A program made the position numbers and the translations under genes. The notes under the pieces are model-generated. The model saw only the letters and a program-made list of their open reading frames with translations. It was not told where the DNA came from and ran no database searches. 64,000 nt of DNA from Candidatus Omnitrophota bacterium (GTDB lineage Bacteria; Omnitrophota; Gorgyraeia; Tantalellales; Tantalellaceae), in contig JBARQV010000031.1 of the NCBI GenBank assembly GCA_049643885.1, positions 20,949-84,948 on the forward strand, written 5' to 3'. Below are positions 31,300-59,575 of this stretch, piece by piece (the first letter of the stretch is position 1; the number at the start of each line of letters is the position of its first letter).

Positions 31300-31710
31300 G
31301 TTGGTTGTTGCAGAGCTGTTTTTCGCTCGGATGTAAGTTGCGCAGTGCGGCATATTCCCTACCAGGGCCCCTCCGCCCGGTGTGGATCCTCCCTGTACGG
31401 GAACATGCTGCACTGCGATCTTTACTTCCTCGCTCTCACCGAAAGTAAACCACAGGTGAACCGTGCCCGCTTGGAAATTTAAAGTCCTGTACGGAACGGA
31501 CCAGGCGATAAAATCCTCGATCCGTTTATCTTATTTCTAAGTTGCGCGGCAAAATGTTTGTCCTGTTTTGGACGGGGCGTAATTTTTCCGAGTGGCCACG
31601 GTTCCCGAAGGATCGAAGATCCTGAGGGAGAGCGAGGAAAAATTTTGAGTGAATTTTCCTCGGTGGGGAAAATGAACGTCCCCGGTAAAAACAGGACAAA
31701 CATTTTAAAT
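31300..31710. other. highly structured intergenic region / candidate sRNA locus
   Basis: 530 nt gap with no credible ORF; 26 bp inverted repeat (31552-31577 / 31680-31706), nested GAGGAAAA...TTTTCCTC hairpin, gcagtgcggcat / atgctgcactgc stem, and a 40 nt core shared with 59518-59556. Confidence 0.3.
31359..31399 (+). repeat. conserved 40 nt core CTACCAGGGCCCCTCCGCCCGGTGTGGATCCTCCCTGTACG (copy A)
   Basis: About 37/40 identical to the reverse complement of 59518-59556; in both loci it is embedded between locus-specific inverted-repeat arms. Confidence 0.6.
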
Positions 31711-31752
31711 AGGCAACGGGGGAATTGACCGTTTCTGCGAAAGAAGGGTTGA

Positions 31753-32475
31753 TCATCCATGAAGCGTACAAAAGACGAAGTATTTCCAGATGATAAAGGC
31801 GGTGAGGCCGTGGGATAAGGCCGGGCACCAGATGTTGTCGAAGTATTCGTAAATATAGCCCCAGATCGCCCCGGCAAGGGCTATAAGACCCAAAAAGACA
31901 AACCCGTCCTTGACCGGGACGACAAAAAACAGGTAGGAATGGACCAGACCATAGATAACCGCAGTTATCCATATAGAGAAGTTTTTCGGGATAGAGTTCG
32001 AAAGTTTTCTCTGGATAAATCCTCGCCAGAATATTTCCTCGCCCAGTCCGACCAAAAAGAGGCAATAGCCAAGATATGATAGGAACCCTTTTACTCTATC
32101 CCCTGCTAAGAGAAGCTTGTACCCAACCTCTCCCTGGAAAGTGAGTTTTACCGGTAAGGTGCTGAGAAAACTGTTTATTTCATGCACCTTGTCCATGGAG
32201 TAGCCTGTCATTCCCAGGGCCTTCAGGAAAAATCCCCCTGAAAAAGCAATGATGAGGCCTGTTAAGATGCCTGCGAGGGCGACCGGCCAGAAAGATCTTC
32301 TTTTAAGACCGACGGAGCCAATACCCTTACCCAGAATGCCGACCTGCCAGAACAAAGGGATGGAAAAAGTGAAAGAAAAAGTGCCGTATACCCCGAAGCA
32401 CAAAAGTATTAAAGGAATAACAATCGCGGCTATGGCTAACGCGAGACGAGATAATGGGATCGGGGTTGTTATCAT
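31753..32475 (-). CDS. CPBP family intramembrane glutamic endopeptidase (CAAX protease-like)
   Basis: EEIFWRGF motif 1, HSYLFF, HG motif; 7 TM helices. Confidence 0.75.
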   Translation of the reverse strand: MITTPIPLSRLALAIAAIVIPLILLCFGVYGTFSFTFSIPLFWQVGILGKGIGSVGLKRRSFWPVALAGILTGLIIAFSGGFFLKALGMTGYSMDKVHEINSFLSTLPVKLTFQGEVGYKLLLAGDRVKGFLSYLGYCLFLVGLGEEIFWRGFIQRKLSNSIPKNFSIWITAVIYGLVHSYLFFVVPVKDGFVFLGLIALAGAIWGYIYEYFDNIWCPALSHGLTAFIIWKYFVFCTLHG

Positions 32476-32495
32476 GTTCCCTATTCTACAGTTTG

Positions 32496-33212
32496 CTACT
32501 GCTGGGCTTCCAGCGCAGCGTGGACTTTGTCTCTCAAGAGGACGAAATCGCCCGGTTTAAAACCAGAGGTTTCGATCGCGGGCAGGGCTTTGACCCGGGC
32601 GTTGACTTTTGTTTCGAAAAGCCATCCGCCCTTGGGTATCGCGTCCCTTGTCCCGTCAATAAAGATGGGAAGTATCGGCTTATTTTCTTTTATAGCAAGC
32701 TTGAAAGCTCCGTTTTGAAAGCGTTTTATTTTTCCGGTTTCGCTGCGGGTCCCTTCAGGGAAGAATAAGACCGAGATATCTTTTTTCAGCCAGTCAGCGG
32801 CTTCCTGGTAGGCCGTTTTGATGCTTCCGAACCGGCCTCTTTTAAGCTTGATATGTTTGGTAAGCGAGAGGCACCAGCCGAGGAAAGGGACTTTAAACAG
32901 GGATTCTTTCGCTACCCATTTAAACTGCATGTGGATCTTGTAAAGGACGACTATATCTGCCAGGCTCTGGTGGTTGGCTATTACCACGTATGTCCTTTCA
33001 GGATCGATATTCTCCAGTCCGCTGACGGTTAGATCCCAGAACGGGTTTAATCCGATGAGAGCGTTCGCCCACCAGTAGCACTGGGCGTGCGCAACTTTTC
33101 TCTTTTTATCAAAGGGATAAAGGACGCCAGTCAAGAAAAGCTCGACAAAAAATAAAATGACCGTCAGGAACGAACCGCTTGCCCAGATCGCTATGGATGT
33201 TATATATACCAT
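32496..33212 (-). CDS. plsC: 1-acyl-sn-glycerol-3-phosphate acyltransferase
   Basis: VIANHQSLADI (HX4D) and FPEGTRS motifs. Confidence 0.85.
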   Translation of the reverse strand: MVYITSIAIWASGSFLTVILFFVELFLTGVLYPFDKKRKVAHAQCYWWANALIGLNPFWDLTVSGLENIDPERTYVVIANHQSLADIVVLYKIHMQFKWVAKESLFKVPFLGWCLSLTKHIKLKRGRFGSIKTAYQEAADWLKKDISVLFFPEGTRSETGKIKRFQNGAFKLAIKENKPILPIFIDGTRDAIPKGGWLFETKVNARVKALPAIETSGFKPGDFVLLRDKVHAALEAQQ

Positions 33213-33304
33213 CAGTATTTGTTACGGAATCCTTCGGGGAAACCGTCCTTTTGTTTTTAGATGTTAACTTTATTTATTTTAATTTGAAAAGACAGAAAAA
33301 AGAA

Positions 33305-34426
33305 TCAAATTTTCAGAGGCAATGTGAAGATGAAAAGATTGCCTTCGCCGGGTTTGCTTTCAGCCCATATTTTTCCGCCGTGAGCTTCTATCGCCATTTT
33401 ACAGAAGGTGAGTCCTAGACCACGGCCGGTTTTTGGCCTATCGCTTTCAATGTGTATGAACTTGTCGAAGATCCTGGCTATATGTTTCTCGGATATAGGT
33501 TTCCCGGAATCCTTTACCCGGACATAAAAATTCTTTTCTTCTTCATTGTACCCTGCCTTTACGCCTATCTTATCTCCCGGGGAGGTAAATTTTATCGCGT
33601 TGCTTACCAGGTTAGTAATAACGCGTTTTACCAGTTCCCTGTCCGCTGACGCCTCGGGCATTCTATTTGGGGTCTCCAGCGACAGGGTTCTGTTTTCATA
33701 GATTGCTAACGGCCGCATCTGGTTCACGACCTCTTCCGCCAGTGCGTTAAGATCGAATTTTTCGTAATGCAGATCGATCCTGCCCTCTTCCATCTTATTT
33801 ATGTCCAGCAGATTAGAGATCATTCTTCTCAAGTCCTCGCTTGCCATGAGCGCAGTATCGAGGTCACTTTTTTGTTCTTCGGTGAGGTTTTCCTTTGATT
33901 CTTCTCGCAGGATCTCGAGCCTTACTGAGATAGCGGTCAGAGGGTTGTTCAGGTCGTGAACTATCATGTGCATAAGATTGTTTTTCATTTTTTCTAACTC
34001 TTTTAATTTAGTATAGTTGTGCTCTAATCGGTCGTGGAGGGATTTGATCTTTAAAAGGGACCTTACTCTTGCCAGAAGTTCGTCCTGATCGTATGGCTTG
34101 CTTACAAAATCATCCGCGCCCGCCTCTATCCCTTTTATTTTATCCTCTTTTCCCTTAAGGGACGTGACCATTATTACGGGGATGAACTGGGTTTCTTTAC
34201 CGGATTTCAGCCTGCTGCAGACTTCATATCCGTTGAGGCTGGGCATCAAGATATCAAGAAGAACGAGGTCTGGAGTGCTTTCTCTTGCGATCTTGAGGGC
34301 CGTTTCACCGTCGTGTGCAGCGATCACCCCATAGCCGTTCACCTGAAGAAGTTTTGTAGCCAGCTTTACGTTCAGGGGTTCGTCATCGACGACAAGGATT
34401 ATTTTTCCGTTTTCCTTCTCTTTCAT
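33305..34426 (-). CDS. hybrid response-regulator receiver / histidine kinase
   Basis: N-terminal receiver (ILVVDDEP...LLDILMP); H-box HDLNNPLTAIS; N-box NLVSNAIKF; G2 GRGLGLTFCKMAIEAHGG. Confidence 0.85.
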   Translation of the reverse strand: MKEKENGKIILVVDDEPLNVKLATKLLQVNGYGVIAAHDGETALKIARESTPDLVLLDILMPSLNGYEVCSRLKSGKETQFIPVIMVTSLKGKEDKIKGIEAGADDFVSKPYDQDELLARVRSLLKIKSLHDRLEHNYTKLKELEKMKNNLMHMIVHDLNNPLTAISVRLEILREESKENLTEEQKSDLDTALMASEDLRRMISNLLDINKMEEGRIDLHYEKFDLNALAEEVVNQMRPLAIYENRTLSLETPNRMPEASADRELVKRVITNLVSNAIKFTSPGDKIGVKAGYNEEEKNFYVRVKDSGKPISEKHIARIFDKFIHIESDRPKTGRGLGLTFCKMAIEAHGGKIWAESKPGEGNLFIFTLPLKI

Positions 34427-34467
34427 TTCTAGTATTTTACACCTAAGTTTCAGCTTTTCAAGATTTT

Positions 34468-35340: not shown

Positions 35341-35351
35341 CGTTTGTTGAC

Positions 35352-35390: not shown

Positions 35391-35412
35391 AAATTGCGGG
35401 AATGTCAATGGA

Positions 35413-35780: not shown

Positions 35781-36152
35781 TCAGGCGATCAACGGTTCAG
35801 GGTGGAAGTTTTCGGCCATCCTGCTAAGCAGTTCCCTGTCTTCGTCCTCGATCTCAGTATAAACTGCGGCTATCAGATACATATGAGGTATTTCCTCGAC
35901 ACGGACCACCTTTCCGACACAGTCTAATGAAGTGTCGGGGTTATGAAGGTATATCTTCAGCTCAAGAAGCATATCGGGTTCCACTCTGTTTTTGTGATAA
36001 AAAAGAACACCGCCGGCGCCGATATTGAGTACCGCGCCCATTTCCCATTCACTGGGGATCGTCCCGACATTTTCCGGCACTTTTTGCTGGAACCTTATTA
36101 TGGCGGGTTTTCTCATCCTCTTGTGTTTTCGCTTTTCTTTCTGGTTTGACAT
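35781..36152 (-). CDS. PilZ domain protein
   Basis: RKHKRMRKP (RxxxR) and NIGAGGVLF (D/NxSxxG) c-di-GMP binding motifs. Confidence 0.6.
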   Translation of the reverse strand: MSNQKEKRKHKRMRKPAIIRFQQKVPENVGTIPSEWEMGAVLNIGAGGVLFYHKNRVEPDMLLELKIYLHNPDTSLDCVGKVVRVEEIPHMYLIAAVYTEIEDEDRELLSRMAENFHPEPLIA

Positions 36153-46029: not shown

Positions 46030-46050
46030 TTACGATGGTCGATGGACGAA

Positions 46051-49000
46051 TTACGCTGCTATGAGTAGGCGCCTGAGCGTGGCGTAGGATTTGATAAGCC
46101 TGCTCTTGTCGTATCGCTTGGCGTTGGGCAGGAGTTTGAACACGAGAGTCTTTGCGTCTTCCTTATTAATGGACTCTATGTTCAACTCATCAAGGTTGAG
46201 TGTTTTGTTGCGTATCGTGAGCCTGTTCTTGATACCCGTTTCACCGAGGACGGATTCGCAGTAATCTGCCAGTGTTATCACTACCACCTCAGCGATCGGA
46301 AAATAAGCGTCAGGATGGAATTCTTTATGGTCTATGTACGAAGAATGCACCTGTGATTCGATGTTTCTTAAGTCTTTCCTCGACTCCGTTGACGCAAATA
46401 CAAACACTTCTGTATTTTTATCCGCGATGTGTTCAGCAAGCTCAGTAGGCATGTTTTTGGAGTCGGCCGGAACTATCACGAGATTGTTCAGTATAGCCGC
46501 GTTGGCTTCGTCCTCTTTAAGCTCCCGCAACGCTTCCATGAGGCGTCCCAGAGGATCTTCGTTTGAACCTGCGGCGACTTTCGTGTCAAACGCAAGGACG
46601 ATCTTTTTGTTGAATGTCAGCGAAAGCGCTGCCTCCCTGAGACACTTGGCGAGTTTCTCGGGGATCGTAAGGTCACGCAGGGTTTCATCCGACGTGCTTT
46701 CATCCGGAGGCAGATATCCACCGCCGAAGACATACCATTTATCACCTTTGAAATAGAGCATGTTAGCTCTTGCTAATTCTAATGCTTCTTTGAAATCTAT
46801 GATTCTTAAAACTCCTTTGGGGTCACCAGTAATATCTATAACCTCAAGAGTAGATGCTAACCCTAAATCGCGAATAGAAATAATTTTTTCTACAGCCCTT
46901 TCCCCTCTGATCACGTCTTCGTCCGAATCAAGACCAAGATCTCTAAATTTATCAATGGCCTCCTGAGGTTTCGCTATTTTAATTTTCACTGACAATGAAT
47001 CCGGGGAAAAGCTCGCGGACATAACGTTATCGTCGTTCATGGTCTCCATTTTCTTCTCTCCAAGTCCTTCGTGTTCCGTCAATGCCCTGCATGTATTAGT
47101 GGACAGGTCCCAGAATTTTACATACCCTTCCTTGTCTGCTGAAATGAACTGGTTATCGCCGTATCTTGTTATTGAAGAGACCTTGGAATCATGTCCTTTG
47201 AATAACGAAACCTCTTTAGCATCGAGGTCCCAAACTCTTATTGTCCCGTCTTTGTGGCCAGTTACAATTTTCTTGTCGGTCAGGACCGCCAGAGAAGAAA
47301 CCGATTTGAGCGTTTCGCCCGTAAGGGCCCTGCCAATAAACTTTGTATTTCTATATATCCCCACGGTACCCATGTCCTGGTGGTCATCGTTTTTTCGGCT
47401 GGTGGCTACCAGGTAACTGACCTCTCTTCTGGTTTTGCTGCCACTCTCGCGCCTCATGACGAAGTTCCCATCCGGCAATAATGCCTCTAAAGTGAGAAAA
47501 ACATTACTCCTGGATAATGCAGGAGGTGGATATGCCAAGATGCGTACCTCTCCGGATGCCGTATCTAAAATACCGATATTTCTTTCCTTTTGTATCAACT
47601 GATTAAAACCGATCTTTTCTTCGGAAAGCGGTGTAATAGAACGTATTTTTTCACTTCTATCTTTTGTGGTGGATAAATAGGTTTTAATTGTTTTCGCGGT
47701 AAAATTCATTATCTCGATCTTTGCTCTGGCATAGCTTGTGATAATATTCCCTGAAGGTGACACTTCGAGCGATTTCACTTCTCCGGGACCCTTCATAAGT
47801 ATGTAAACCTTGTTCTTGGTGATATTCCATAATCTTATTGCCCCGTCCCTATGCCCCGTTACGATCCTTTTGTCGCGAGTCTCCAGGGTATCGAGTATTG
47901 CAGTTTTTGTGATAGGACTTGCATACCCGCTGAAAGTGACTTCTATTTCCGTTTCTGTGTTTTTTGTGAATAACATTTGCGCGCTATTGTCCTCCACGGG
48001 AGGGGTCCAACGTTCTTTTGTCTCGAATTTTGAAAGAAGGTCATCCGTATAAAGAAGCCATTCACCATCACTTCTCTGGTTTACCACCGGCCCCGTTATC
48101 TTAGATTCTGCGTCAGGGTCAAGTTTAAAAGGAATGGATTTTGATTCTTGTTTAACCGGCTCCGGTTTGTCGGGTCCGGCAGAGGGTATGTCCGCCGCGC
48201 CGCGCAATGCTGCCTCGGTAGCCGTCATAATGCGGTATATGCCGTTTTCAGCTATTCTTGAGTCCCCCGCAATAATGGTTGCTTCTGAAAGTTCGTTACC
48301 GGACCACCTGAGTTTAAGGCCGGGAGACACGCGGCAGATAATATTCACCTTAAATACCGGTTCGCGCATGCTTTCCGGCCAGAGTATTTCTGAAATAGTG
48401 GATATAATATAATCTTCTGAATCCTGATCTCTTGTGAAGATAACGTCGCCTACCTGGAGAAAATCTAATCTTTCTCTAAAGAGGATTTTGTACACGCATT
48501 CGGCATTTTTGCGGATAAACTTGGAGAGTTGCACCATATCCTGGGGAATGCCTACCACAGCGGTCATGTCACCGGTAGCGATGAAACGTTTTAGATCCGT
48601 AAAGGCCTGGCTCCTTGTTTCATCAAACTGTTCTCTATCCATGATACGGTAGACGCGGCCGGATCTTAATTGATCTTCTGGGATAGAAGATTCCTTTTCA
48701 GTTCCTGGAATCGGTACGAATTCTCTGGGTCCCCGCGCGAAGAGAACTTTATAACCCAGTTTCCCGTCTTCCAGGAGTTTTGTTACAAGGAAGACATATT
48801 CCAATAGATTAGTATTAATGAAATAAATAATGTCACCCTCTTTAAGGTCGTCTGTTTTATCTATTGATGCCGCGGGGTCGACAATACACTCAGCGTTTGC
48901 TTTGATCAGCCGGTTGGCGTCAAAATTTTCGATCGGCATATCAGGCATGTTCGCGATATCGCCGGTAGCGAGAACGCGCAGGAACAGCCGGTAATCACCC

Positions 49001-52000
49001 GTTGAAGTTATCTCCCAGCGTTTTATTCTGCCCTTATTATCAAGGGTTACAACATCTCCGTCAGGCGTCAAATCCACATATTTATGAATGAGAGCGTTTT
49101 CTTCTTTTATTGTCGTGATAAGCTTTCCGTTCAGATCCCAGAGCCTTGCACAGCTATCGCCGTCGGTGGTGCAGATAATGGTATTATTTAATACCCCCGC
49201 CGAATAACAACCTCCTATAGTGATGAATTCACCCTCTAGTGCGCCTTCTATCGGTTCTCCGTCAGGGGTCCACAAAAAAGCATGAGCTTCGAATTTATCT
49301 TCATCAGCGCGAAGCCTCCCTAGAATATTTCCGTTTGGAAGAATTATGGGGGCTTCAATAAATTCGCGCCAATTGTAGCCAAACCAGTTCTCGATCTTTA
49401 AAGTTGCAATAGGGTCACCCTTGGAGGTCCAGATCCTTACTCTGTTATCACTATCAAAGGTAAGGACATTGCCGTTAGGGAGGTTTGCCATGCCTTTTGC
49501 TCCCGCCATTACTAGTTCGATTTCCATAGGTGATAATGAGACTGAAAGATTGGTTGCGTATTTATTGCTACTGTTCCACGCTCGTCCTGATGCAAATATC
49601 CACCCGATTGAAGTGGATATCACATATTTCCATACAGCATCTTTGGAAGAAATTCCCCCTTCTAATCTTGGTGATGTTTGCTCGCCGTCTTCGCTGAAAA
49701 CCGTTTGTTTTCCGTCTTTATCGTAAGTGATATATCTTCCGTCATCAAGACGCGCCGCACCGTAATAGGCCATCTCGGTATTAAGTTTTCCCGGACTCAA
49801 GTCTAATCTTAGTTTACCGTATTGGGTCCATACTCTCGCGTGTTCGTCACTATCGGATGTGAGGATCTCGCCATCAGGAAAGACTGTCGCGCCGTAGGCT
49901 CCCACTATAACTTTATCGACTTTTAAAGCGTCTAAGAGATTGCCGCCCTGGTCCCAGAGCCTTGCACTGTCGTTGTCGATGGTAAGGATATTGCCGTCAG
50001 GGAGGACTTCTATGCCCCGTTCTGCTACTGTGATGTTTCCGGACCACAATATGGCCCACCAGCTTTGCTTTTCCACCCTTTCGGTAGAGAACGCGTCTTT
50101 TATAATAACCCCGTTCTTATCCCATAGCCTGACCTTGCCTTCACTGTCCCGGGTGAGTATGTTACCGCTTGGGAGGATCTCCAGAAACGTAATTTCTCCC
50201 GTATCCTCGAATTTTCCCTTTTTCCCCGGGCCTATTTGGCCTTTCCTTGTGTATAGAGTCGGCAAAGTTCTAATATCCAAAGTTGTCGTATCCATAACAG
50301 GCTTCGGAACCACGCAGGTAAATTTGCCGGCCGGTGTATAGAAGACGATCCTGTTTTCACTGTCGCGAATTATCAAATTGCCGTTGGGGTGGACCTTAAA
50401 TGGTATGTCTCCAACGAGCATCCTGCCTGAAAATTTAAAATCAAAATCCACCACTTTTTGAGCCGTAGAAAGCGGCCCAGTCAGTTTAGGCGTTTCTTCC
50501 GACGCGGAAACTGGAGGTTCGGGTTTTTTGAATTTCAGGACGGAAATATGTCCTATCTCTGCCGCGTTGGCAACGTAGACAGTGTCATCTTTATCTATGG
50601 CCAGGCCTCGCGGTTGTTTGAATTTTCCTTGCAACTGATCTATGATCCCGTTGTCGCCAAAAGCGGGGTTCCGGCTTTTTCCATCCGGATTCAGGACTAT
50701 CATTGCTTCGGCATTACTTATGATCACGTAGATATTCCCTTTACTATCTATGCCTATGCCTTGTTTTACCACTTCCAACAGCTTTCTTTCCCCCAAGTCT
50801 TCAAAATCAAGGGGTATTGTCCCGTCATTTCCAAAAGCCGTATTAAGGCTTCCATCCGGCTTCAGAACGGATATTGTGCCGTTGCCGTCGTTGAGCACAA
50901 AGATATTGCCTTTATTATCTAATGCTATGCCGACAGGTTTACTGAATTTACCGGTTTCCTTTGGTATTGTTCCTGATGACGCGAACCCTGTTTTCAGGGT
51001 CAGATCGGGGTTAAGAACGGTCAGCGATTCGTTCCTCGCATCGACAACCAGGAAATTTCCTTCCTTGTCCCTGACCATGTCAACGGGCGTACTAAGGCCC
51101 AATGGTTCATAATCTACCAGTCCTTTATTGCCGAAATAGCGGTTTAGCTTCTTCCCATCAGGATTTAGGACGGAAAAGTTTCTTCTCCGGTTAACGCCAA
51201 TGATATTACCGGCATCATCTATAACTGCGCATATCAGCCGTTCGATCTTGCCCGATATGATCCCTTTCTTACCGAAATTTCGGTTTAGAGCTTTCTCGTC
51301 CGAATTAACAACCGACATCCAATCGCCTTCGTTACTTACGAAAATATTTCCTTGTTTGTCGACAGCTACATTGAATGGCATTACAAAGTTGCCCGTTTCC
51401 CGCGGGATCACGCTTACTTCCAGCTCGCACTTGACTGTAGTCGGAGATCCGGGTTCTGCCGGCGATTTGACGGGAGTTTTTTCTTCTCCGGGGCGTGGTT
51501 CGATCAAGGCCTCTTCGCCGTATGAATTTTTCAAAGAGTCGCCGGTTTCGCCCGGAACGCCGGGGGCTTCTGCGACGGATACGGCGGACTTTTCCACCGG
51601 GACCTCCACCCAGAACCAGGTCTTGCCTTCTTCCACATCGAAGTTTGTTTCTATGCCGAGTGAATCAAGCTCAAGTTTAGCTTTAAGGAATCCCTGGAGA
51701 GCGCGGGGTGCTGTTTTTTCGATCTCTTCCGCGTTCTCGTATTTTGTCGCGAAAATATGCCGCTGGAGGAATTTGCTGAACCCGGAATTGTAACCGATAG
51801 CTACACATAAACCCCCGTCACTCTGGCCCGCAGCTAATCCCACGAGTTTTCCGGCCTCTTGTGCTTCCTTAAGACGGTCCGGAAGGCTTTCAGGGAGAGA
51901 TTCCCAGTAATCTTTTATCACCATCCTGTCCTTTTCGTAAAGAAAAGACTCAAAATTGGCTCTTTTTGTGATCCTTACAGTTTCTTTTATCCAGCCATCC

Positions 52001-55000
52001 AGCGCTTTCTTTTTCTCGTCCGGGGCTTTGGCGACTATTTCCTTTCGTCCCGCGTTTGCCTCTTTATCTTTGCTGCGGAAATCGGGACTGGTCAATACGA
52101 AATTATCGGTAAGCTGTGAGGGATCAATGGCTTTCCCTGCGCCTATCGCGACTTCTTTTCTGAAACCGAATATCTCTTCCAGGTCGCCTATCGTGATCGC
52201 TTCGGCAGGTCTTTCCTTAAAGCGCTCGGCAATACCCGTTATTGCGGCCCTGTCCCGCTCGCCCAGTTCTTCGACTTCTTGCGCTTCTTCCCGCTTTTGA
52301 TGTTCAAAAACGATCTTTCCTTTTTCAAATTTCGCCGTTATCGTGTCGCCCCTTCGTATAGCGGCTATATTTTGTGTCATGTAAGTTGAAAGCGGGTTCT
52401 CAAAATGCCTTTTTACTGCGTCTGCCATGGGACGCGCGCCGTATTCAGCTATGTATCCTTTTTCGGCAAGCATCCTGTTGATGCTGGCTTTTTCCTCATC
52501 ATTCCGGCCGATAACGAGGTTTATTCCCTGCTTATCCCTGAAGCGTTCCATCGTTTCCGACAAGAAGAGCTGGACTATCTTTGTGAGCGAATCCAGGGGA
52601 AGCGGGTTAAATACCAGCGTGCCATCGAGGCGGTTCAGAAATTCCGGTCTGAAGAACCTTTTCACGGCATTGCTGACCGAAACGTTCATTTTTTCTATGA
52701 ACGCTTTTATCTTTTCCGGGTCACCGCTTTTGACGGCTTCTTCCATTTCTGGATATAACGATACGGGATGAGGCCTGCCGCCCTCTATCACGATGTCCTT
52801 CATTCCCAGGTTCGTGGTAAGTATGATGATCGATTCATTGAACTTCACGGTGTCGCCCCGGTTTGAGGTAAGCCTTCCGTCTTCCATCACCTGGAGAAGT
52901 ATATTCATCACATCAGCGGCCGCTTTGTCTATTTCGTCGAAAACGATAACCGTCTTCGGATATTTTTTCATATGTTCAAAAAGGTAACCCTCGCCTTCAT
53001 CATATCCCACGAATCCCGGGGGAGCGCCTATAAGCCGTGAAAGGTCTTCCCTGGTCTTGTATTCGCTCATGTCGATCCGGAGCATTTTCATGCCCAGTGT
53101 ATCGGCAAGCGTTTGAGCGGTCTGTGTCTTGCCCACCCCGGTAGGCCCGGCGAAAACAAATGCCCCAAGAGGCGCTTTCGGTGACTTCAGCCCCGCCTTG
53201 GCGACCCTTACTACACTGCTTACGGTTGAAAGCGAGTCATCCTGGCCGACTACGCGGTTCTTGAGGTTGTCCTCAAGAGCGAGGAAGTTCGCCCTTTCGT
53301 CCCGCTTTAATGAATCCGTATCGATCTCTACCTGGCCTCTCCTTGCTTCAAGCTCGCTTATAAATTCAAGCGCCTCATCCTGCCCGATGGCGGGTGACGA
53401 TTTTTCTCCCATTCTTTCCTTGGAAGCGTTGACGCGCCGGACAAGCGTCTTTATTTCATCGATCCCTAAAAGGTCTTCTTCTGAAACTTCTTCGTTCGCG
53501 GCGGCGTCCTGGAGTTCTTCTTTGAGCTGTTCCAGGCTGTCCCTGAGTTCCACCGCGACGCGCGATTCTTTCTGCCGCCTTTCGAGGGCGAGCCCGCTGA
53601 ACCACCTGTTAAGCACCTCTACCGCAGAATATGACGAGAAATACTGTTCCCACAGCCGGACCGCCACGCGCATGGCTTCAAAACTTATCTGGATACCGGG
53701 CTTGCCGTTACTTGTCTTTTTCTCTATATAATCCTTTATAAAGAGATGCAGGTTTTCCATTACGGCGCTTGCTTCCTGCGGGAGCATGTCGACCAGCGTA
53801 AAATGCTGGTCAAAGGAATCGTCTTCGGTGATCGACTGGCGCGACGATGTCATGACAAAAGAGACCGTCTTGAGTCCCCTGAACATCCTCAGGAAATACC
53901 CGAGCATGAACGGGTTTACCCTTACCTTTTCAAGCTCGTCCTTGACGTCGTCAAAATCGATCACAATGATGGTCTTGAGGCCTTTTTTCTCGCCGTCTTT
54001 TTCGATAAGCTCGGCCAGTTCTCTCATCTTTATCTCGAAATAACCCACCATGGAGAAGTAACTTTTAAGGGACTCCAGTTTCAAGCGAAGGATACGGGTA
54101 TCAGTAAATCCTGAGATCTCCCCGCGCGACGCGCGCGCGACAAAACTGTCGACCACCATCCTCTTGGCCAGGATAGAATCGCTCAGGACCAAAGGATAAT
54201 TCCTTCTTTTCTGGTTAAGGACGGATGAAAGGCGGCCGATAGTCTCGAACGGCGGGTAAAGGTCTTCTAAAACGCCTTCGGCCGCGTCAAGGCTCAGGTT
54301 CTCAAACGCCCCGTTCAGTTCCTTGCGGAGCTTCTCCTGTTCCGCTATCGACTGCTCTTGCATTTCGTCCTGCATTTTCCTGGCGCTTTCTTCATTGCCG
54401 CTTTTTCTGGTCGCCAGTATCGTCCTTTTCCTTACCAGGAGTTCAAGCTCCGTCCGTTCTTTTATCATCCTTTCCGATATTGCCTGCTTCTGCGAATCGC
54501 TGCTTGTCCTGCGCAGCTGGTTGTCCATTATCTTCTGGTTGGCCTGCAGCTCCTGTATCCTTACTTCGATCTTTTTGAGTTCAGTGTCGATATTTTCGGG
54601 ACTTAAGTCCATTTCCGGCAGGCTTTCGGGGTCGGCGATGTCTATTTCGTATTTTTTACGCATATCTTCAAGCAGTGTCTGCCGGATCTCCATTGCCCTC
54701 GAGTCTTCTTTATCTGGGACCGAGAATGATTTAGCCATGACCTGAATTGATATATTTTTGATGTCGAGCAGTTCATATAATTTCTCGGCAGGCGTTTCTT
54801 TAGTCCCTTCTTTCTTTAAACGGTCTATGGCCTTCCTGTGCCGTGCCTGTTCTGTTTCCTGTTTTTCTTTTTTGGTCTTAAATATGGCTTTTCCGTCTGA
54901 AACGTCAGCTTCTATTGTTTCTCCTTTATTTATAGAGTCGGCAAGGATAAGGTCAGCCAGCGGGGCCAGCACTATCCTTTTTAAAGACCTTTCCAGGGGC

Positions 55001-58000
55001 CTGGCGCCGTTCGTGACATCGTATCCTTCCTCCAGGACCTTTTCGCGAAGAGTTTGACTCAGGCGAAGTTCCCCGTAACCTTCCGCGGAAAGGAGTTTAT
55101 TGACGTTCTTGAGCTTTATATCCAGTATTTTTTCCAGGTCTTCCTTTGAAAGAGGATTAAAATTGATTATGTTCGGCAGGCCTATGCGGCCGATCAATTC
55201 CGGCCGCAAGCCGGCTTTTACGGCTGCAATGACTTCATCTCTTACTTTCCGCCTTAGGGCTTCCAGTTCTTCCAGCGCCTCTTCTCCTCCCCGGTCCTTG
55301 AGCATGGCGATCTTGACATACTTTTCGTTGAGCGCTCTTGTTCTCTCCGGGTCGGCCGCATACCCTTCGCTGAAACCTATATTCGAAGTCATTATTATGA
55401 TAGTGTTCCTGAAGTTGGCCATTCTTCCCTTCCCGTCGCGAAGCTCGCCGTTATTAAGGACCTGCAGGAGCAGGTCGAGCGTCTTGGGATGGGCTTTTTC
55501 CACCTCATCCAGAAGGACGACGCTGTATGGCCTTTTCAGGACGTGATTGGTAAGTTGCCCGCCTTCTTCGTACCCGACGTATCCCGGGGGCGAGCCGATC
55601 AGTTTATATGAATCGCTCTGGTTCATGTATTCACTCATGTCGATGCGCACCATGGCGTCTTCCGAGCCGAACATGTGCCGGGCAAGGGAACGCGCGAATT
55701 CCGTTTTTCCCACACCGGTAGGCCCGACAAGGAGGAATGCCCCGATAGGCAGGTTCCCGCTCGCGCCGATCACTCTTCTGCGCGAGAATGCCTGGTAGCT
55801 GTCATTGATGGCTTTGTCCTGGCCGATAAGCATGCCCTGGAGTTTAGGGACATAATCCTTGAGAAGCTCGTCTTCGGAAGCAAGTATCTCGTAGAGCGGG
55901 ACGCCGCTGTCTTCGGATATCTGTTTAGCTATTGTCTCTATAGTTATTTCCCATTTTTTGCTTTTGGTGATGTCTTCTATGAATTGCCGGTTCTCTTCCA
56001 GCTCCTTCTCGACCGCTTCCTGCTCGCTCAAAAGCCTGTCCAATGAAAGTTCCAGGAATTTTTGCTGCTCAGCGTCTTTCTCGTCCGCGCCGCACTTTAT
56101 CAGTTCTTTTGATGTCCTCAGTATCCTTTCCAGTATATCCGCTCTTTTTGCTTCAAGCCTTGATGCGGTCGTGAACGCGCGCGTGATTATCCTGTCGATG
56201 ACTTCCTGAAGTTTGTTTACCGAAAGCCCCTGTGGATAATGCTTCTGGCTCAGTCTGAGGGCTTCATCGAGGATCTTTCTTGGAACCTGGACTTTTACGC
56301 CTTCGGGGATGATGTCTTTATACGCGGAATTTATCCTGCGGGTGAAACTCTTCGCGATCCTCAACAGGTCATATTCCGGGGGCGCCCGCATGTCCAGGAC
56401 AGAAAACTTCGGTTCAAGGCGCTTGTCTTTCGCGAGGACAGTATCATAAAGCTGCGGATTGCCCAGGATGACCACGCTTATATTTTCGTTTTCGATTGCT
56501 TCCTTCAGCTGGAAATACAAGCTGGCCATCATGCCCGATTTCATTTTCTGGACGTCATAAAAATCCTGGAAGTTCAGGACAAGGACTGATCTTTCGTTCT
56601 TGCGCGCGGCCTTTAACGCGCTTGTTAGCTTGGCCAGTTCCATTTCAAGCTGGCCGGGTATAGCGAGATTCTCGGCGAATCGGGCGGTATTTATCTCGAA
56701 AAATTTCGCTTTTCTCAAGTTATCAAGCCCTGTTGAAGTCTCCCCTTTGCGCACTACTATTCCTTCTATCAATCCCTGGCATGCGATAGGGTCGCCTACG
56801 ATCATGACGTTGTTCATCTCCGGGTCCGTGATCTGGTCGTTCAGAAAAGCCGCGTAATTCGCCACGTAATACGTGTCGTCTATCTTTCCGTCTTCAACCA
56901 GTTCATCCAGGTCGTTGGTGTATTGTTTGATGTAATCGGGATTCGCTTGACCCTGGCCTTGAGGCCCGGCAGGAACACTCTCGCCTAATTCGAGCAGGAT
57001 CAATATAGGCGCAGCTATTATCCCCGCTAAGAACATCCATTCAAGAGGCATGATCCCGGCTGTTGTCGCGTTCACTCCCAGGTCAAGGGTCATCCCGAAG
57101 CCATGCTTAAGTGTAAAATAAGCCCCGATGCCGATCCACCATAACATATGATGGTGGTGATGGCCGCTCAGATGCTGTTTTAAGTGCGCCAGTTTTTGCG
57201 CGAGAATGGATCCTGTGGTTTGTTGGGCAGCCCCGTCGGTTCCGTTAGGTTTATCGTCACTTTCGCCGGGCGTGATCTCCTTGCCGGCTTTTTCGTATAT
57301 CCTTTCAAGGGCTCCCCTGCCCCTGTCGCTTCTTAAAACCTTGCCTATCGCGGCCGGGTTATCCTGGACCAGGACTTTTTGCTGGATAGCCTGGATCACC
57401 GCGCCCATTACTTCCTCAAAGTTCTTGTCTTTTTTATCGGACCTTAAATAACGGACAACCGTCTTTATCGTTACTTCCCTTATATCGTGCTTCTCCTCAT
57501 CGCTTACCTCGGTTTCCAGGTCATCTTCGCCCTCTTCTTCAAGGGCGTCGGCAAGTTCGTCCAGTTCTTCGCCCATCTCTTCGACGGCTTTCTCGACCTC
57601 TTCGACGATCCTGTCGGCATCTTCTTCGTTTTCTTCCTTTTCTTTTTCCCGTCTCAATGCTTCCAGATAGTACATCCTGTCGCATATGCTTAATATTGAT
57701 GGGACCAGAACGGCAAGAAGAATGACCACTATCGGCAGGCCGCCTATCATTGACGCGCCGGCCGTGTGGCAACCGGTCATGAATGAGCCGCCTATAACGG
57801 CCAGGATAAGCCCAAGAAGGGTCTTTCCGGGGCCGGATTTCTTTTCTTTAGCGGGTATTTTCTGGTCTATAAAGATCCTTAGGGCTTTGCCCAATAATCC
57901 CTTACTCATCCCCTTTCCGGGAAAATGGTCCGGAAAGAACTCCTGCTGGGCAAGGATAGCGTGGTAATGGCTAAGAGTCGGGCAGATAAGTTCATGCAGA

Positions 58001-58842
58001 AGATACTCGTCGATCAGATGCGGGCGGCACATATTTTCAAGTTCCGCGATAAAGTCAGTGGCAAGGAAGATCTCCTTATCTCCGGGGTAATGACGTCCCA
58101 GGAAGAAATCATCTTTTCCTTCTACGATAGATTTTAACCCATAGATCGTGTATCCACCGCTTTCTATTTTTTCTATTAATTCTTCAAGCGCCCTTCTGTG
58201 TTCAGGAGCCAGGCTGAATAGGCTGACGCCTTGAGTGAATTTTTCAAGCAGGCTTACCAGTCGTTCTTTATACTCGTCGGTTATGTCTTCTTTCGGGGCT
58301 TGTTCGAACTTTTTAGCGGACAATTCGCCCTGATGGATAAACCCGTCGCCCGTTTTCCCTTCTTCTGCTGTTTTTTCATCTATTTCGGGCTTGCTTTCGG
58401 GTTCTGCGGGTTCAGCCGCGGCCGGCTTTTCGCCTTTCTTTCTTATCGCGGTATCAAAATCGTTTTCAGGGTCTATCACGACTTCGAATTCAATAAAATC
58501 TTTTTTGCCCGGGATGATCCATTTTCCGGTTTCGTCCTGCCTCTTTTCATTGCTGTCAAAGAATAAATGCACTTTTTCACCGTTCACTTCAGGAAAAAGG
58601 TGTTCAGTGATCTCTTCAAAGGGTTTATGGAGGCCGCGCAAGTAAACCTGCACGGCAACCTGGACCGAAAAAAGATTTGCGGGTTCCCAAAAGTTGCTGG
58701 CAGCACTAAGATACATATTTGCCGCGCCTCTCTGGAATATGTCAGGATTCGCCCATGTAACGTTGTTAACAGTGAACAGGCACACTATCACCACGGCTAT
58801 TATCTTTATCCATGCCCTATTCCTGTTTTTCGCGTTTTCCAT
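46051..58842 (-). CDS. giant membrane-anchored multidomain protein (~4263 aa): 2x ClpB-like AAA+ modules (degenerate NBD1 + intact NBD2), NHL beta-propeller, multiple WD40-like repeats, unknown C-terminal domain
   Basis: Start ATG 58842 with SD AAGGTGA (the longest ORF runs to 59061, but that extension passes through the leader hairpins and repeats). Signal-anchor AWIKIIAVVIVCLFTV plus two TM hairpins. Degenerate NBD1 NNVMIVGDPIACQGL. Walker A GPTGVGKT at nt ~55702-55725 and ~53130-53153; Walker B VVLLDEVEKAHP and VIVFDEIDKAA; GARPLER and GARPMAD sensor-2. NHL repeats at nt ~50450-51450. WD40-like repeats (e.g. HRDGAIRLWN, HKDGTIRVWD) at nt ~47100-50400. Confidence 0.85.
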   Translation of the reverse strand: MENAKNRNRAWIKIIAVVIVCLFTVNNVTWANPDIFQRGAANMYLSAASNFWEPANLFSVQVAVQVYLRGLHKPFEEITEHLFPEVNGEKVHLFFDSNEKRQDETGKWIIPGKKDFIEFEVVIDPENDFDTAIRKKGEKPAAAEPAEPESKPEIDEKTAEEGKTGDGFIHQGELSAKKFEQAPKEDITDEYKERLVSLLEKFTQGVSLFSLAPEHRRALEELIEKIESGGYTIYGLKSIVEGKDDFFLGRHYPGDKEIFLATDFIAELENMCRPHLIDEYLLHELICPTLSHYHAILAQQEFFPDHFPGKGMSKGLLGKALRIFIDQKIPAKEKKSGPGKTLLGLILAVIGGSFMTGCHTAGASMIGGLPIVVILLAVLVPSILSICDRMYYLEALRREKEKEENEEDADRIVEEVEKAVEEMGEELDELADALEEEGEDDLETEVSDEEKHDIREVTIKTVVRYLRSDKKDKNFEEVMGAVIQAIQQKVLVQDNPAAIGKVLRSDRGRGALERIYEKAGKEITPGESDDKPNGTDGAAQQTTGSILAQKLAHLKQHLSGHHHHHMLWWIGIGAYFTLKHGFGMTLDLGVNATTAGIMPLEWMFLAGIIAAPILILLELGESVPAGPQGQGQANPDYIKQYTNDLDELVEDGKIDDTYYVANYAAFLNDQITDPEMNNVMIVGDPIACQGLIEGIVVRKGETSTGLDNLRKAKFFEINTARFAENLAIPGQLEMELAKLTSALKAARKNERSVLVLNFQDFYDVQKMKSGMMASLYFQLKEAIENENISVVILGNPQLYDTVLAKDKRLEPKFSVLDMRAPPEYDLLRIAKSFTRRINSAYKDIIPEGVKVQVPRKILDEALRLSQKHYPQGLSVNKLQEVIDRIITRAFTTASRLEAKRADILERILRTSKELIKCGADEKDAEQQKFLELSLDRLLSEQEAVEKELEENRQFIEDITKSKKWEITIETIAKQISEDSGVPLYEILASEDELLKDYVPKLQGMLIGQDKAINDSYQAFSRRRVIGASGNLPIGAFLLVGPTGVGKTEFARSLARHMFGSEDAMVRIDMSEYMNQSDSYKLIGSPPGYVGYEEGGQLTNHVLKRPYSVVLLDEVEKAHPKTLDLLLQVLNNGELRDGKGRMANFRNTIIIMTSNIGFSEGYAADPERTRALNEKYVKIAMLKDRGGEEALEELEALRRKVRDEVIAAVKAGLRPELIGRIGLPNIINFNPLSKEDLEKILDIKLKNVNKLLSAEGYGELRLSQTLREKVLEEGYDVTNGARPLERSLKRIVLAPLADLILADSINKGETIEADVSDGKAIFKTKKEKQETEQARHRKAIDRLKKEGTKETPAEKLYELLDIKNISIQVMAKSFSVPDKEDSRAMEIRQTLLEDMRKKYEIDIADPESLPEMDLSPENIDTELKKIEVRIQELQANQKIMDNQLRRTSSDSQKQAISERMIKERTELELLVRKRTILATRKSGNEESARKMQDEMQEQSIAEQEKLRKELNGAFENLSLDAAEGVLEDLYPPFETIGRLSSVLNQKRRNYPLVLSDSILAKRMVVDSFVARASRGEISGFTDTRILRLKLESLKSYFSMVGYFEIKMRELAELIEKDGEKKGLKTIIVIDFDDVKDELEKVRVNPFMLGYFLRMFRGLKTVSFVMTSSRQSITEDDSFDQHFTLVDMLPQEASAVMENLHLFIKDYIEKKTSNGKPGIQISFEAMRVAVRLWEQYFSSYSAVEVLNRWFSGLALERRQKESRVAVELRDSLEQLKEELQDAAANEEVSEEDLLGIDEIKTLVRRVNASKERMGEKSSPAIGQDEALEFISELEARRGQVEIDTDSLKRDERANFLALEDNLKNRVVGQDDSLSTVSSVVRVAKAGLKSPKAPLGAFVFAGPTGVGKTQTAQTLADTLGMKMLRIDMSEYKTREDLSRLIGAPPGFVGYDEGEGYLFEHMKKYPKTVIVFDEIDKAAADVMNILLQVMEDGRLTSNRGDTVKFNESIIILTTNLGMKDIVIEGGRPHPVSLYPEMEEAVKSGDPEKIKAFIEKMNVSVSNAVKRFFRPEFLNRLDGTLVFNPLPLDSLTKIVQLFLSETMERFRDKQGINLVIGRNDEEKASINRMLAEKGYIAEYGARPMADAVKRHFENPLSTYMTQNIAAIRRGDTITAKFEKGKIVFEHQKREEAQEVEELGERDRAAITGIAERFKERPAEAITIGDLEEIFGFRKEVAIGAGKAIDPSQLTDNFVLTSPDFRSKDKEANAGRKEIVAKAPDEKKKALDGWIKETVRITKRANFESFLYEKDRMVIKDYWESLPESLPDRLKEAQEAGKLVGLAAGQSDGGLCVAIGYNSGFSKFLQRHIFATKYENAEEIEKTAPRALQGFLKAKLELDSLGIETNFDVEEGKTWFWVEVPVEKSAVSVAEAPGVPGETGDSLKNSYGEEALIEPRPGEEKTPVKSPAEPGSPTTVKCELEVSVIPRETGNFVMPFNVAVDKQGNIFVSNEGDWMSVVNSDEKALNRNFGKKGIISGKIERLICAVIDDAGNIIGVNRRRNFSVLNPDGKKLNRYFGNKGLVDYEPLGLSTPVDMVRDKEGNFLVVDARNESLTVLNPDLTLKTGFASSGTIPKETGKFSKPVGIALDNKGNIFVLNDGNGTISVLKPDGSLNTAFGNDGTIPLDFEDLGERKLLEVVKQGIGIDSKGNIYVIISNAEAMIVLNPDGKSRNPAFGDNGIIDQLQGKFKQPRGLAIDKDDTVYVANAAEIGHISVLKFKKPEPPVSASEETPKLTGPLSTAQKVVDFDFKFSGRMLVGDIPFKVHPNGNLIIRDSENRIVFYTPAGKFTCVVPKPVMDTTTLDIRTLPTLYTRKGQIGPGKKGKFEDTGEITFLEILPSGNILTRDSEGKVRLWDKNGVIIKDAFSTERVEKQSWWAILWSGNITVAERGIEVLPDGNILTIDNDSARLWDQGGNLLDALKVDKVIVGAYGATVFPDGEILTSDSDEHARVWTQYGKLRLDLSPGKLNTEMAYYGAARLDDGRYITYDKDGKQTVFSEDGEQTSPRLEGGISSKDAVWKYVISTSIGWIFASGRAWNSSNKYATNLSVSLSPMEIELVMAGAKGMANLPNGNVLTFDSDNRVRIWTSKGDPIATLKIENWFGYNWREFIEAPIILPNGNILGRLRADEDKFEAHAFLWTPDGEPIEGALEGEFITIGGCYSAGVLNNTIICTTDGDSCARLWDLNGKLITTIKEENALIHKYVDLTPDGDVVTLDNKGRIKRWEITSTGDYRLFLRVLATGDIANMPDMPIENFDANRLIKANAECIVDPAASIDKTDDLKEGDIIYFINTNLLEYVFLVTKLLEDGKLGYKVLFARGPREFVPIPGTEKESSIPEDQLRSGRVYRIMDREQFDETRSQAFTDLKRFIATGDMTAVVGIPQDMVQLSKFIRKNAECVYKILFRERLDFLQVGDVIFTRDQDSEDYIISTISEILWPESMREPVFKVNIICRVSPGLKLRWSGNELSEATIIAGDSRIAENGIYRIMTATEAALRGAADIPSAGPDKPEPVKQESKSIPFKLDPDAESKITGPVVNQRSDGEWLLYTDDLLSKFETKERWTPPVEDNSAQMLFTKNTETEIEVTFSGYASPITKTAILDTLETRDKRIVTGHRDGAIRLWNITKNKVYILMKGPGEVKSLEVSPSGNIITSYARAKIEIMNFTAKTIKTYLSTTKDRSEKIRSITPLSEEKIGFNQLIQKERNIGILDTASGEVRILAYPPPALSRSNVFLTLEALLPDGNFVMRRESGSKTRREVSYLVATSRKNDDHQDMGTVGIYRNTKFIGRALTGETLKSVSSLAVLTDKKIVTGHKDGTIRVWDLDAKEVSLFKGHDSKVSSITRYGDNQFISADKEGYVKFWDLSTNTCRALTEHEGLGEKKMETMNDDNVMSASFSPDSLSVKIKIAKPQEAIDKFRDLGLDSDEDVIRGERAVEKIISIRDLGLASTLEVIDITGDPKGVLRIIDFKEALELARANMLYFKGDKWYVFGGGYLPPDESTSDETLRDLTIPEKLAKCLREAALSLTFNKKIVLAFDTKVAAGSNEDPLGRLMEALRELKEDEANAAILNNLVIVPADSKNMPTELAEHIADKNTEVFVFASTESRKDLRNIESQVHSSYIDHKEFHPDAYFPIAEVVVITLADYCESVLGETGIKNRLTIRNKTLNLDELNIESINKEDAKTLVFKLLPNAKRYDKSRLIKSYATLRRLLIAA

Positions 58843-58857
58843 ATTGTTGTCACCTTT

Positions 58858-58883
58858 TAGCTCGATAAATCGAGCAACTACAT
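58858..58883. promoter_or_regulatory. palindromic hairpin motif copy 1 (GCTCGA-TAAA-TCGAGCAACTAC) in the giant-gene leader
   Basis: Part of a 29 nt direct repeat ttttagctcgataaatcgagcaactacat that occurs twice, 47 nt apart, directly upstream of the RBS. Confidence 0.6.
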
Positions 58884-58902
58884 TTGTTGTATCGGGTCGT
58901 TT

Positions 58903-58930
58903 TTTAGCTCGATAAATCGAGCAACTACAT
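58903..58930. promoter_or_regulatory. palindromic hairpin motif copy 2
   Basis: Identical 29 nt repeat. Confidence 0.6.
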
Positions 58931-58932
58931 CC

Positions 58933-59002
58933 CACGAACGACGAACTACGACCGACTACCGACGATCGACGAACCACGATCGACGAAATACGACCGACGA
59001 TT
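58933..59002. repeat. 10x tandem heptanucleotide repeat (ACGANCG)
   Basis: acgaacg acgaact acgaccg actaccg acgatcg acgaacc acgatcg acgaaat acgaccg acgattc; perfect 7 nt periodicity over 70 nt in the giant-gene leader. Confidence 0.8.
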
Positions 59003-59003
59003 C

Positions 59004-59059
59004 CGGTCTGGGGTGGTATTAACCAGCGCAGGAGGTTAATACCACCTTTATACCAGACC
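59004..59059. other. leader hairpin (imperfect 22 bp inverted repeat) with AGGAGG in the loop
   Basis: ccggtctggggtggtattaacc ... ggttaataccacctttataccagacc. Confidence 0.5.
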
Positions 59060-59063
59060 ATGT

Positions 59064-59085
59064 ATCCCTTCGCTTCGCTCAGGAT
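59064..59085. repeat. 19 nt motif CCTTCGCTTCGCTCAGGAT (copy 2; copy 1 at 37888-37910)
   Basis: Exact 19 nt match between two intergenic regions. Confidence 0.5.
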
Positions 59086-59095
59086 AATTCGACTA

Positions 59096-59127
59096 GCGGT
59101 TTGCGTTCGCTGTGCTTCGCAAACCGC
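59096..59127. other. perfect 10 bp inverted repeat gcggtttgcg / cgcaaaccgc hairpin
   Basis: Seen directly in the sequence. Confidence 0.5.
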
Positions 59128-59136
59128 AGTCTCATT

Positions 59137-59178
59137 AAAAAAAAGCCAGGCTGACCTTCTTTAGGTAGCCTGGCTTTC
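59137..59178 (-). terminator. intrinsic terminator on the minus strand (A8 - agccaggct...agcctggct)
   Basis: 9 bp GC-rich stem followed by T8 on the minus strand; would terminate a minus-strand transcript starting near 59580. Confidence 0.6.
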
Positions 59179-59499
59179 TAGAAAACAATTTCATCTAGAC
59201 CCTGCGCTTTGCGCCCCTACGTCACCATAGGTTTGCCCCGTTAGAGATTTATCCCGTTAGAGTTTATTTTCTAATGGGATGTTCTCCCTAACGTGGCTCG
59301 CCCCATCATCTCTAACGGGGTTTGCCTTTATCTAGAATTGTATATTATTCTACCACAAATTAAAGTTAGGTCAAGAGAAAGTAAGTTAGCTATTTTATTC
59401 TTAACGGGATGTAAGTTATTTATTCATGTGAGTTAGGGAGGTGTAATTGCCGGATGCACAATACACGTACGAGTTTCTATTTGTGGAACGAAGCATTAA

Positions 59500-59575
59500 C
59501 GGGATATGGGGGTGTTTCGTACGGGAGGATCCACACCAGGCGGAGGGGCCCGGTAGAAACACCCCCATATCCCGT
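59500..59575. repeat. hairpin B carrying conserved 40 nt core copy B (59518-59556) between 19 bp arms
   Basis: cgggatatgggggtgtttcg [core] gaaacacccccatatcccg; the core reverse-complement matches 31359-31399. Confidence 0.6.

Follow-up and report, generated by a model that had tools for sequence, protein, structure and literature searches.

Two copies of a 29-nucleotide (nt) core, GGGCCCCTCCGCCYGGTGTGGATCCTCCC, lie in opposite orientation in a 64,000-nt stretch of DNA from a Candidatus Omnitrophota bacterium (GenBank assembly GCA_049643885.1, contig JBARQV010000031.1, positions 20,949 to 84,948). Further in the text this stretch is referred to as the window, and the two copies as A and B. Each core forms the tip of a long hairpin, and among the matches listed at least 120 copies of this hairpin family were found in 32 species genomes and the window. 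On balance, copies A and B are probably ordinary members of a non-autonomous palindromic repeat dispersed over the genomes of Candidatus Omnitrophota and belonging to the general kind of repetitive extragenic palindromes and bacterial interspersed mosaic elements (REP/BIME), enterobacterial repetitive intergenic consensus sequences (ERIC), Correia elements and Rickettsia palindromic elements (RPE). The repeat behaves as a small mobile palindromic element rather than as a local regulatory RNA. No mention of the core sequence or of an Omnitrophota palindromic repeat was found in the literature; the repeat is a new family, atypical among elements of a known kind.

The core occurs exactly twice in the window, at 31365-31393 (plus strand) and 59523-59551 (minus strand), and was matched in none of 100 shuffled windows. 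The two cores were also recovered as the inverted pair I3 by an inverted-repeat search of the window. They are identical at 28 of 29 positions, and over the 40-nt stretch TACC(A)GGGCC...TCCC(T)GTACG the loci differ by one substitution and two 1-nt indels (~37/40 identical), in agreement with the original prediction made for this DNA. Copy B has lost an A-T pair at stem position 4 and carries a C-to-T change in the tip loop. The placement of the core at the tip of a hairpin with locus-specific arms was also borne out: the arms of A and B are unrelated to each other, and each pair is compensating. The RNA folding energy equals −57.7 kcal/mol for copy A (z −7.3) and −51.8 kcal/mol for copy B (z −6.6), and none of 200 shuffles was as stable as the copies. 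Both spacers are gene-free and, as predicted, longer than 500 nt. The spacer of copy A (31223-31752, 530 nt) extends between a CAAX-protease gene and a SpoIIAA-like gene, and that of copy B (59062-59691, 630 nt), between the gene of a 4336-amino-acid (aa) protein and a GT87 glycosyltransferase gene. The features of the two loci are as follows (type 1 is described in the next section).

31337..31421, minus strand (putative folding strand): copy A, complete type-1 hairpin element of 85 nt, core written on the plus strand
31337-31367 and 31391-31421: arms of copy A
31365..31393, plus strand: copy A core (29 nt), GGGCCCCTCCGCCCGGTGTGGATCCTCCC, a form shared by 105 copies
59496..59578, plus strand (putative folding strand): copy B, type-1 hairpin element of 83 nt, core reads on the minus strand
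~59496-59525 and 59549-59578: arms of copy B (inverted pair I5)
59523..59551, minus strand: copy B core (29 nt), GGGCCCCTCCGCCTGGTGTGGATCCTCCC, differing from that of copy A by one substitution in the loop
31753-32475, minus strand: CAAX-protease gene, neighbour of copy A
30860-31222, minus strand: SpoIIAA-like gene, neighbour of copy A
31286-31257, minus strand: promoter-like site from the promoter scan, copy A lies upstream of it
59374-59347, minus strand: promoter-like site of the riboswitch and giant gene, flanking copy B
59656-59685, plus strand: promoter-like site of the GT87 gene, flanking copy B and divergent from the preceding one

Distribution, anatomy and conservation of the repeat

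One genome per species was scanned with the 20-nt core pattern CCTCCGCCNGGTGTGGATCC, and at least 113 stretches matched. Loci around the copies, 811 kb in all, were retrieved and are designated by L-numbers (L009, L042 etc.). With the window included, there are at least 126 matches, of which 120 have the flanks of the family and six are chance hits in unrelated coding DNA. The search for further copies in related metagenome-assembled genomes (MAGs), proposed as a check of the original prediction, was thus strongly positive. Nearly all hosts are Candidatus Omnitrophota, or MAGs labelled 'Planctomycetia' or 'bacterium' that carry the same elements; a few are labelled Deltaproteobacteria or Bdellovibrionota. 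The highest copy number among the matches listed (at least 37) was found in the fragmented MAG JBDRFA. The element had no match in plasmid and phage records. The possibility that the arms serve as guides against phages was rejected, as neither the core nor either of the two window arms is found exactly in viral contigs. The core as a restriction-site decoy was rejected as well: the GGGCCC, CCGG and GGATCC sites that it contains are not avoided in the window.

The copies have two architectures, type 1 and type 2 with others, and each genome has only one of the two and a single arm type. Type 1 comprises 73 copies among the matches listed, including both window copies, and reads ...CCTACC[A/C]GGGCC-core-TCCC[T/G]GTACGG.... 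The unit of ~85 nt consists of 31-position arms, an invariant 3x3 internal loop (TAC opposite TAC at positions 6-8), a 5-bp stem and a 23-nt non-palindromic tip. In 55 distinct type-1 copies, with positions counted outward from the GGG/CCC pairs, pairing is 85-100% up to arm position 31 and ~30% at position 32; therefore the ends of the unit are sharp and its length is 85 nt. Type 2 and others comprise 47 copies among the matches listed, with unrelated arms. Many of them have a second conserved segment, a basal 'clamp' GCGGGTCCTG[T/C]C...G[T/C]CACCCGC. The arms are lineage-specific yet complementary, and their outer ends are the most variable part of the element.

The complementarity is accompanied by strong covariation. 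In alignment A3, 93.4% of cells are paired, compared to 70.6% in shuffled alignments and 36–48% with slid partners. Changes on both sides were observed for 23 of 33 pairs (410 cells; none of 500 shuffles was as high), and the covariation score was 0.572 versus 0.152. One-sided G·U intermediates are rare relative to double changes. A covariance model, R1, was built from the alignment of the 55 type-1 copies including copy A, and in the window it finds only copies A and B. Copy A scores 86.9 bits (E 7e-20, 31334-31424), a match by construction given that it is a training row, and copy B scores 75.9 bits (E 5e-17, 59493-59581, minus strand); the remaining hits are generic hairpins below 27 bits. 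With E-values up to 10, copies A and B match only miRNA-precursor models of Rfam, that is, generic hairpins.

The core is far less variable than the arms. Across the 811 kb of loci, exact cores number 105; a further 14 have one difference and six have two, and these differences mostly affect the outer GGG/CCC pairs or belong to recombinants. A genuinely diverged centre was seen in only four of ~120 copies (one with six changes), in a sample that is not fully unbiased, as the loci were picked around exact copies. The arms differ at many positions within one genome, whereas the cores are near-invariant across genomes, and the core caps at least five unrelated arm lineages.

Hairpins that have the clamp but another tip were found as well, in locus L013 and in a second repeat of the window; thus the apical core and the basal clamp are separable modules. 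The second window repeat, ~100 nt long, folds as a hairpin and has two copies (45945-46050 and 61120-61228, 85–89% identical), one of which immediately follows the giant gene's stop codon. The base of this repeat, read on the minus strand as GGGCGGGTCCTGTCGC...GCGCCACCCGCC, is the type-2 clamp of other Omnitrophota; its tip differs. A third repeat family (...CACCATTCACCATAAACTATTCACGGATCAGGCTGCCCCTCCGGGAACACCC...) is present in JBDRFA (L016 2440-2560, L104, L027 3853, L090 3847, L100 1231, L065 2498) and is joined to the core element in two places at a shared GCCCCTCCG; the junctions look like microhomology recombination between repeat families. Within genomes, subfamilies with near-identical arms are found alongside singletons and recombinants.

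Folding strand and genomic context

Earlier strand counts were noisy or confounded by related copies. We therefore relied on a stricter per-genome test, where only isolated transition mismatches with three Watson-Crick pairs on each side were considered, once per genome and context. On the core-forward strand, 33 A·C mismatches were found versus six G·T mismatches (p 1.4e-5); 13 genomes lean to A·C, none leans to the opposite side and two tie. A·C mismatches on the core strand are G·U or G·T wobbles on the complement, hence the single-stranded fold is that of 5'-...GGGAGGATCCACACCGGGCGGAGGGGCCC...-3'. In the window the folding strand would then be the minus strand for copy A and the plus strand for copy B. 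The orientation originally assigned to the element would have to be reversed, since the apparent folding strand is the complement of the core as it was written there.

The orientation of the core relative to flanking genes, assigned by crude gene calls, is co-directional in 23 cases, antisense in 21, divergent in 15 and convergent in 10, with no preference. Most copies are intergenic and every intergenic type is used. Several type-2 copies are located within long open reading frames (ORFs), and only GC-rich type-2 variants were found in genes. In a RimO homologue (L042) and a CCA-adding/poly(A) polymerase homologue (L012) the element forms an extra inter-domain linker in frame; both were aligned to solved homologue structures, and the alignment holds on both sides of the element. 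Further in-gene candidates, annotated by eye, are CobQ and a cytochrome c assembly protein. The in-gene copies occupy three forward frames and one reverse frame and, by analogy with Rickettsia RPEs, appear to be read through; the peptide inserts predicted from them include GPLRPVWILP, GPSARCGSS and APPPGVDPP. Intron-like removal from the mRNA was considered and rejected: all candidate split genes proved to be adjacent complete genes, thus there is no sign of frame-breaking insertion or of removal at the RNA level.

Presence and absence of the element at orthologous sites was observed in three comparisons (L089 vs L009, L092 vs L077 and L077 vs L060), where a gene pair abuts in one species and is separated by an element-bearing spacer in the other. 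The search for the orthologous locus of copy A showed that synteny around the SpoIIAA-like gene is not conserved in relatives. Several MAG contigs end at a copy, and independent assemblies of the same strain (Logan contigs L115-L118) all end inside the 29-nt core of copy A. To look for recurrent neighbour proteins, we clustered 1309 open frames of at least 100 aa located within 2.5 kb of copies and compared the recurrent ones with Pfam; only housekeeping families were found. There is no ORF between the closest inverted pair of copies. A tblastn search with CsrA, IS608 TnpA and RAYT queries gave no match, which does not count as evidence.

Candidate explanations and the surroundings of the copies

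The proposed mechanism is as follows. The element would have multiplied within genomes via a single-stranded intermediate, DNA or RNA, that folds the complement 5'-GGGAGGATCCACACCGGGCGGAGGGGCCC-3'. The invariant tip and the internal loop would serve as a recognition module for a factor encoded elsewhere; the leading guess for this factor is a single-strand (HUH/Y1-type) transposase or another recombinase. Complementarity of the arms would be maintained by selection for folding, probably aided by template-switch correction of quasi-palindromes, which is an established mechanism. Copies A and B would be independent insertions in permissive spacers and not functional partners, and the 28 kb between them housekeeping DNA. 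A non-autonomous element fits best because the copies are many, have sharp ends and random orientation, are tolerated in frame and are present or absent at orthologous sites, and because the element encodes no protein in cis and has a single-stranded folding polarity.

Several observations weigh against this explanation. The orientation of the folding strand is independent of GC skew and of the majority coding strand: 42 copies have a G-rich active strand and 59 a C-rich one (p 0.11, skew being a crude proxy for the replication strand), and copies A and B have opposite orientations on one replichore. Therefore targeting of the lagging strand as in IS200/IS605 receives no support. No transposase or recombinase was found next to any copy among the 1309 neighbouring frames or in the 28-kb interval. 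A target-site duplication of 3 nt or more was absent at any offset, and no clean empty site fixes the exact ends; the orthologous comparisons are between species only ~70% identical. The tip is conserved far beyond the level of neutrally decaying selfish copies, which suggests that most copies are under purifying selection or that they evolve in concert. One arm lineage per genome looks like long vertical residence and not like a recent invasion; further, one orthologous spacer has a copy in both species, each with the arm type of its own genome. Finally, the identity of the tip across lineages with wholly different arms is poorly explained. Given the near-invariance of the tip, its identity across lineages and the missing mover, we keep under consideration readings with a host function and a tip module that passes from one hairpin scaffold to another.

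The first of these, possible although in our opinion unlikely, is a host-functional RNA module, where the hairpin would act in transcripts, for instance by governing their processing or stability or by binding the ribosome or a conserved RNA-binding protein, and purifying selection would hold the tip invariant in every copy. The complement strand has two GGAGG motifs, and the core strand has two CCUCC motifs and a GGAUC-CUCC stretch, which we take to resemble the 16S 3' end. The RNA module agrees with the extreme conservation of the 29 nt, despite diverging arms, across the phylum and in a few MAGs that bear the names of other phyla, with the strong covariation, and with the strand-asymmetric tolerance of wobbles typical of a single-stranded fold. 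It also agrees with the retention of non-palindromic loops, which correction of quasi-palindromes would erase, and with a copy located upstream of the same gene in two species. However, the folding strand runs in the direction of both neighbours in 21 cases and against both in 23, so that half of the copies would be transcribed from the wrong strand, and a GC-rich hairpin of 85 nt leaves no room for a promoter of its own. Moreover, both window copies are upstream of predicted promoters, one-sided G·U intermediates are rare compared to double changes, in-gene copies use several frames and either orientation, and the repeat has no counterpart in Rfam.

We give a lower probability to the reading in which the 29-nt core is an autonomous functional module, under purifying selection in essentially every copy phylum-wide and placed on interchangeable hairpin scaffolds. 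It rests on the core atop at least five unrelated arm lineages and on the type-2 clamp base with other tips, two of them in the window. The module could be an element of a new kind that targets or replaces hairpin tips, or a host-recruited single-stranded ligand, e.g. of a ribosome-associated or RNA-binding factor, given the paired GGAGG/CCUCC motifs.

A DNA-level architectural or protein-binding site, similar to BIMEs that bind IHF and gyrase, seems improbable. In this case a conserved protein would bind the core as duplex or cruciform, which is consistent with an invariant sequence regardless of gene orientation, with the intergenic bias and with palindromic arms that could extrude as a cruciform; GATCCACA in the core is presumably close to the DnaA-box core. 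On the other hand, the strand asymmetry of mismatches indicates a single-stranded fold over duplex recognition, some copies are in frame within genes, and the binding protein is hypothetical and the motif likenesses are tentative.

The original prediction took the copies for a small family of structured small RNAs (sRNAs), here read as acting in trans, or of cis-regulatory RNAs, with copy B ending at the terminator 59137-59178. This is very improbable. The hairpins are indeed stable and lie in long spacers, and the terminator is genuine, located downstream of copy B on the same strand. But it belongs to a cyclic di-GMP (c-di-GMP-I) riboswitch ~270 nt from copy B, and a promoter-like site lies between the two; therefore copy B is upstream of that transcript and is not terminated by it. 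Copy B would moreover fold from the other strand. An sRNA family does not agree with at least 120 copies spread over 33 genomes, randomly oriented, with no preference relative to genes and some of them in frame within genes, and the copies have neither associated promoters or terminators nor an Rfam family. Least credible of all is that the inverted cores, 28,129 nt apart, are the ends of a 28-kb invertible or transposable segment: the interval contains PrmA, PilZ, a P-type ATPase, a permease, an aminotransferase and the giant AAA/WD40 protein but no recombinase, its composition is uniform, and more than 100 unrelated loci carry a single copy of the same core. Both the sRNA with a terminator and the invertible segment are essentially excluded.

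The surroundings of the copies are as follows. The promoter and terminator scans found no promoter-like site ahead of the element and no U-tract terminator after it for either copy, and a tRNA/tmRNA scan gave no match. Both window copies are outside predicted transcripts. The sole Rfam match in the window is the c-di-GMP-I riboswitch RF01051 at 59247-59161 (minus strand), with 53.6 bits against the gathering score of 35. The hairpin with a U-run at 59178-59137 (minus strand) is its expression platform and is situated 76 nt before the start of the 4336-aa ORF. The site between copy B and the riboswitch (59374-59347, minus strand) is σ70-like, TTGACC-16-TGnTAGAAT. The ORF (46051-59061, minus strand) encodes two ClpB-type AAA+ modules and NHL/WD40 beta-propellers, and the protein is apparently under c-di-GMP control.

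A PilZ-domain gene is present at 35781-36152. Upstream of the riboswitch, 12 nt of the leader, CCCCGUUAGAGA, are complementary to the beginning of the aptamer, UCUCUAACGGGG (59290-59330 vs 59225-59247, within one transcript), and this possible pairing would compete with aptamer folding. Within the first 70 codons of the giant ORF there is an exact 29-nt tandem duplicate with a small hairpin (GCTCGATAAATCGAGC; 58855-58883 and 58902-58930), with a third copy, 76% similar, at 61265-61293; the true start codon of the gene may be further downstream. A branched hairpin of ~160 nt (31550-31706, −71 kcal/mol, z −9.4) adjoins copy A in the same spacer. Further long palindromes were found at 45356-45527 and 45590-45826, and the host genome seems to be rich in long intergenic palindromes. 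A TAACGGGAT-like motif is repeated four times around copy B (59253-59261, 59406-59415, 59497-59506 and 59566-59575), and two of the four are the outer ends of its arms. They could be what is left of earlier copies, or else act as operator-like sites between the divergent promoters.

Significance and comparison with known systems

Omnitrophota are uncultivated nanobacteria whose genomes assemble poorly and for which there is no genetic system. The repeat explains some contig breaks and is a practical cause of assembly fragmentation in this phylum. It also adds peptide inserts to annotated proteins, and both annotation and binning pipelines should take account of it. Most palindromic repeats conserve the stem or the ends, whereas this one has an invariant tip, freely covarying arms and swappable modules. 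This combination points to a putative, highly conserved trans-acting partner, whose identification would show how such elements move or act in the phylum. More than 100 compensating hairpins make a natural set for studying how complementarity of palindromes is kept up. If the GGGAGGAUCC... strand were enriched among transcripts regardless of context, a role at the RNA level would be supported.

As a structured single-stranded element, RNA or DNA, the repeat shows both compensatory changes and wobbles confined to one strand. It has no promoter, intrinsic terminator or fixed polarity of its own, as an independent sRNA gene would, and it does not reach the gathering threshold of any Rfam family. 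The conserved terminal inverted repeats and target-site duplication of classical miniature inverted-repeat transposable elements (MITEs), derived from DDE transposons, are absent as well.

The closest parallels are found among palindromic repeats of other bacteria. ERIC (also IRU) and Correia (NEMIS) elements are likewise imperfect palindromes, of 100–150 nt, which are scattered over spacers in both orientations; in ERIC, the central inverted repeat is conserved. These elements are considered MITE-like, and their transcribed copies influence the processing of mRNA. They have conserved terminal inverted repeats and a TA target duplication, unlike the Omnitrophota repeat, for which a duplication was not found and which varies most at its outer ends; there is no sequence similarity. 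RPEs are ~100-nt palindromes present in frame in genes and in spacers, and read through. The RimO and CCA-adding/poly(A) polymerase homologues have in-frame insertions of the same kind, apparently with read-through; this is a functional analogy only. The phylum is different, only GC-rich type-2 variants enter genes here, and most copies are intergenic.

The ends of IS200/IS605 elements and integron attC sites resemble the repeat in that one strand forms an imperfect hairpin, unpaired bases provide polarity and the target is not duplicated; in attC, as here, the structure is conserved and the arms vary. However, the repeat has no adjacent TnpA/TnpB or IntI and no cassette array, and the replication-orientation bias of IS200/IS605 is absent, with GC skew as the crude proxy. 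Besides, attC conserves the outer boxes and not the tip. REP, BIME and REPIN elements, associated with RAYT (TnpA_REP, HUH-Y1), are short extragenic imperfect palindromes with tens to hundreds of copies and species-specific variants, polarity due to asymmetric bulges, complementary stems and no target duplication, and the repeat is broadly similar to them. The differences are the unit length (85 nt versus 20–40 nt), copies within genes, the lack of a conserved GTAG-type tetranucleotide 5' of the stem (GTAG is found only inside the internal loop of the complement strand), and the absence from the 811 kb of loci of a RAYT gene with copies on both sides. REPs conserve the sequence of the stem, whereas the Omnitrophota repeat keeps the tip invariant and lets the arms vary. 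In REP systems the mover is encoded elsewhere and acts on single-stranded hairpins; for the Omnitrophota repeat such a mover is presumed.

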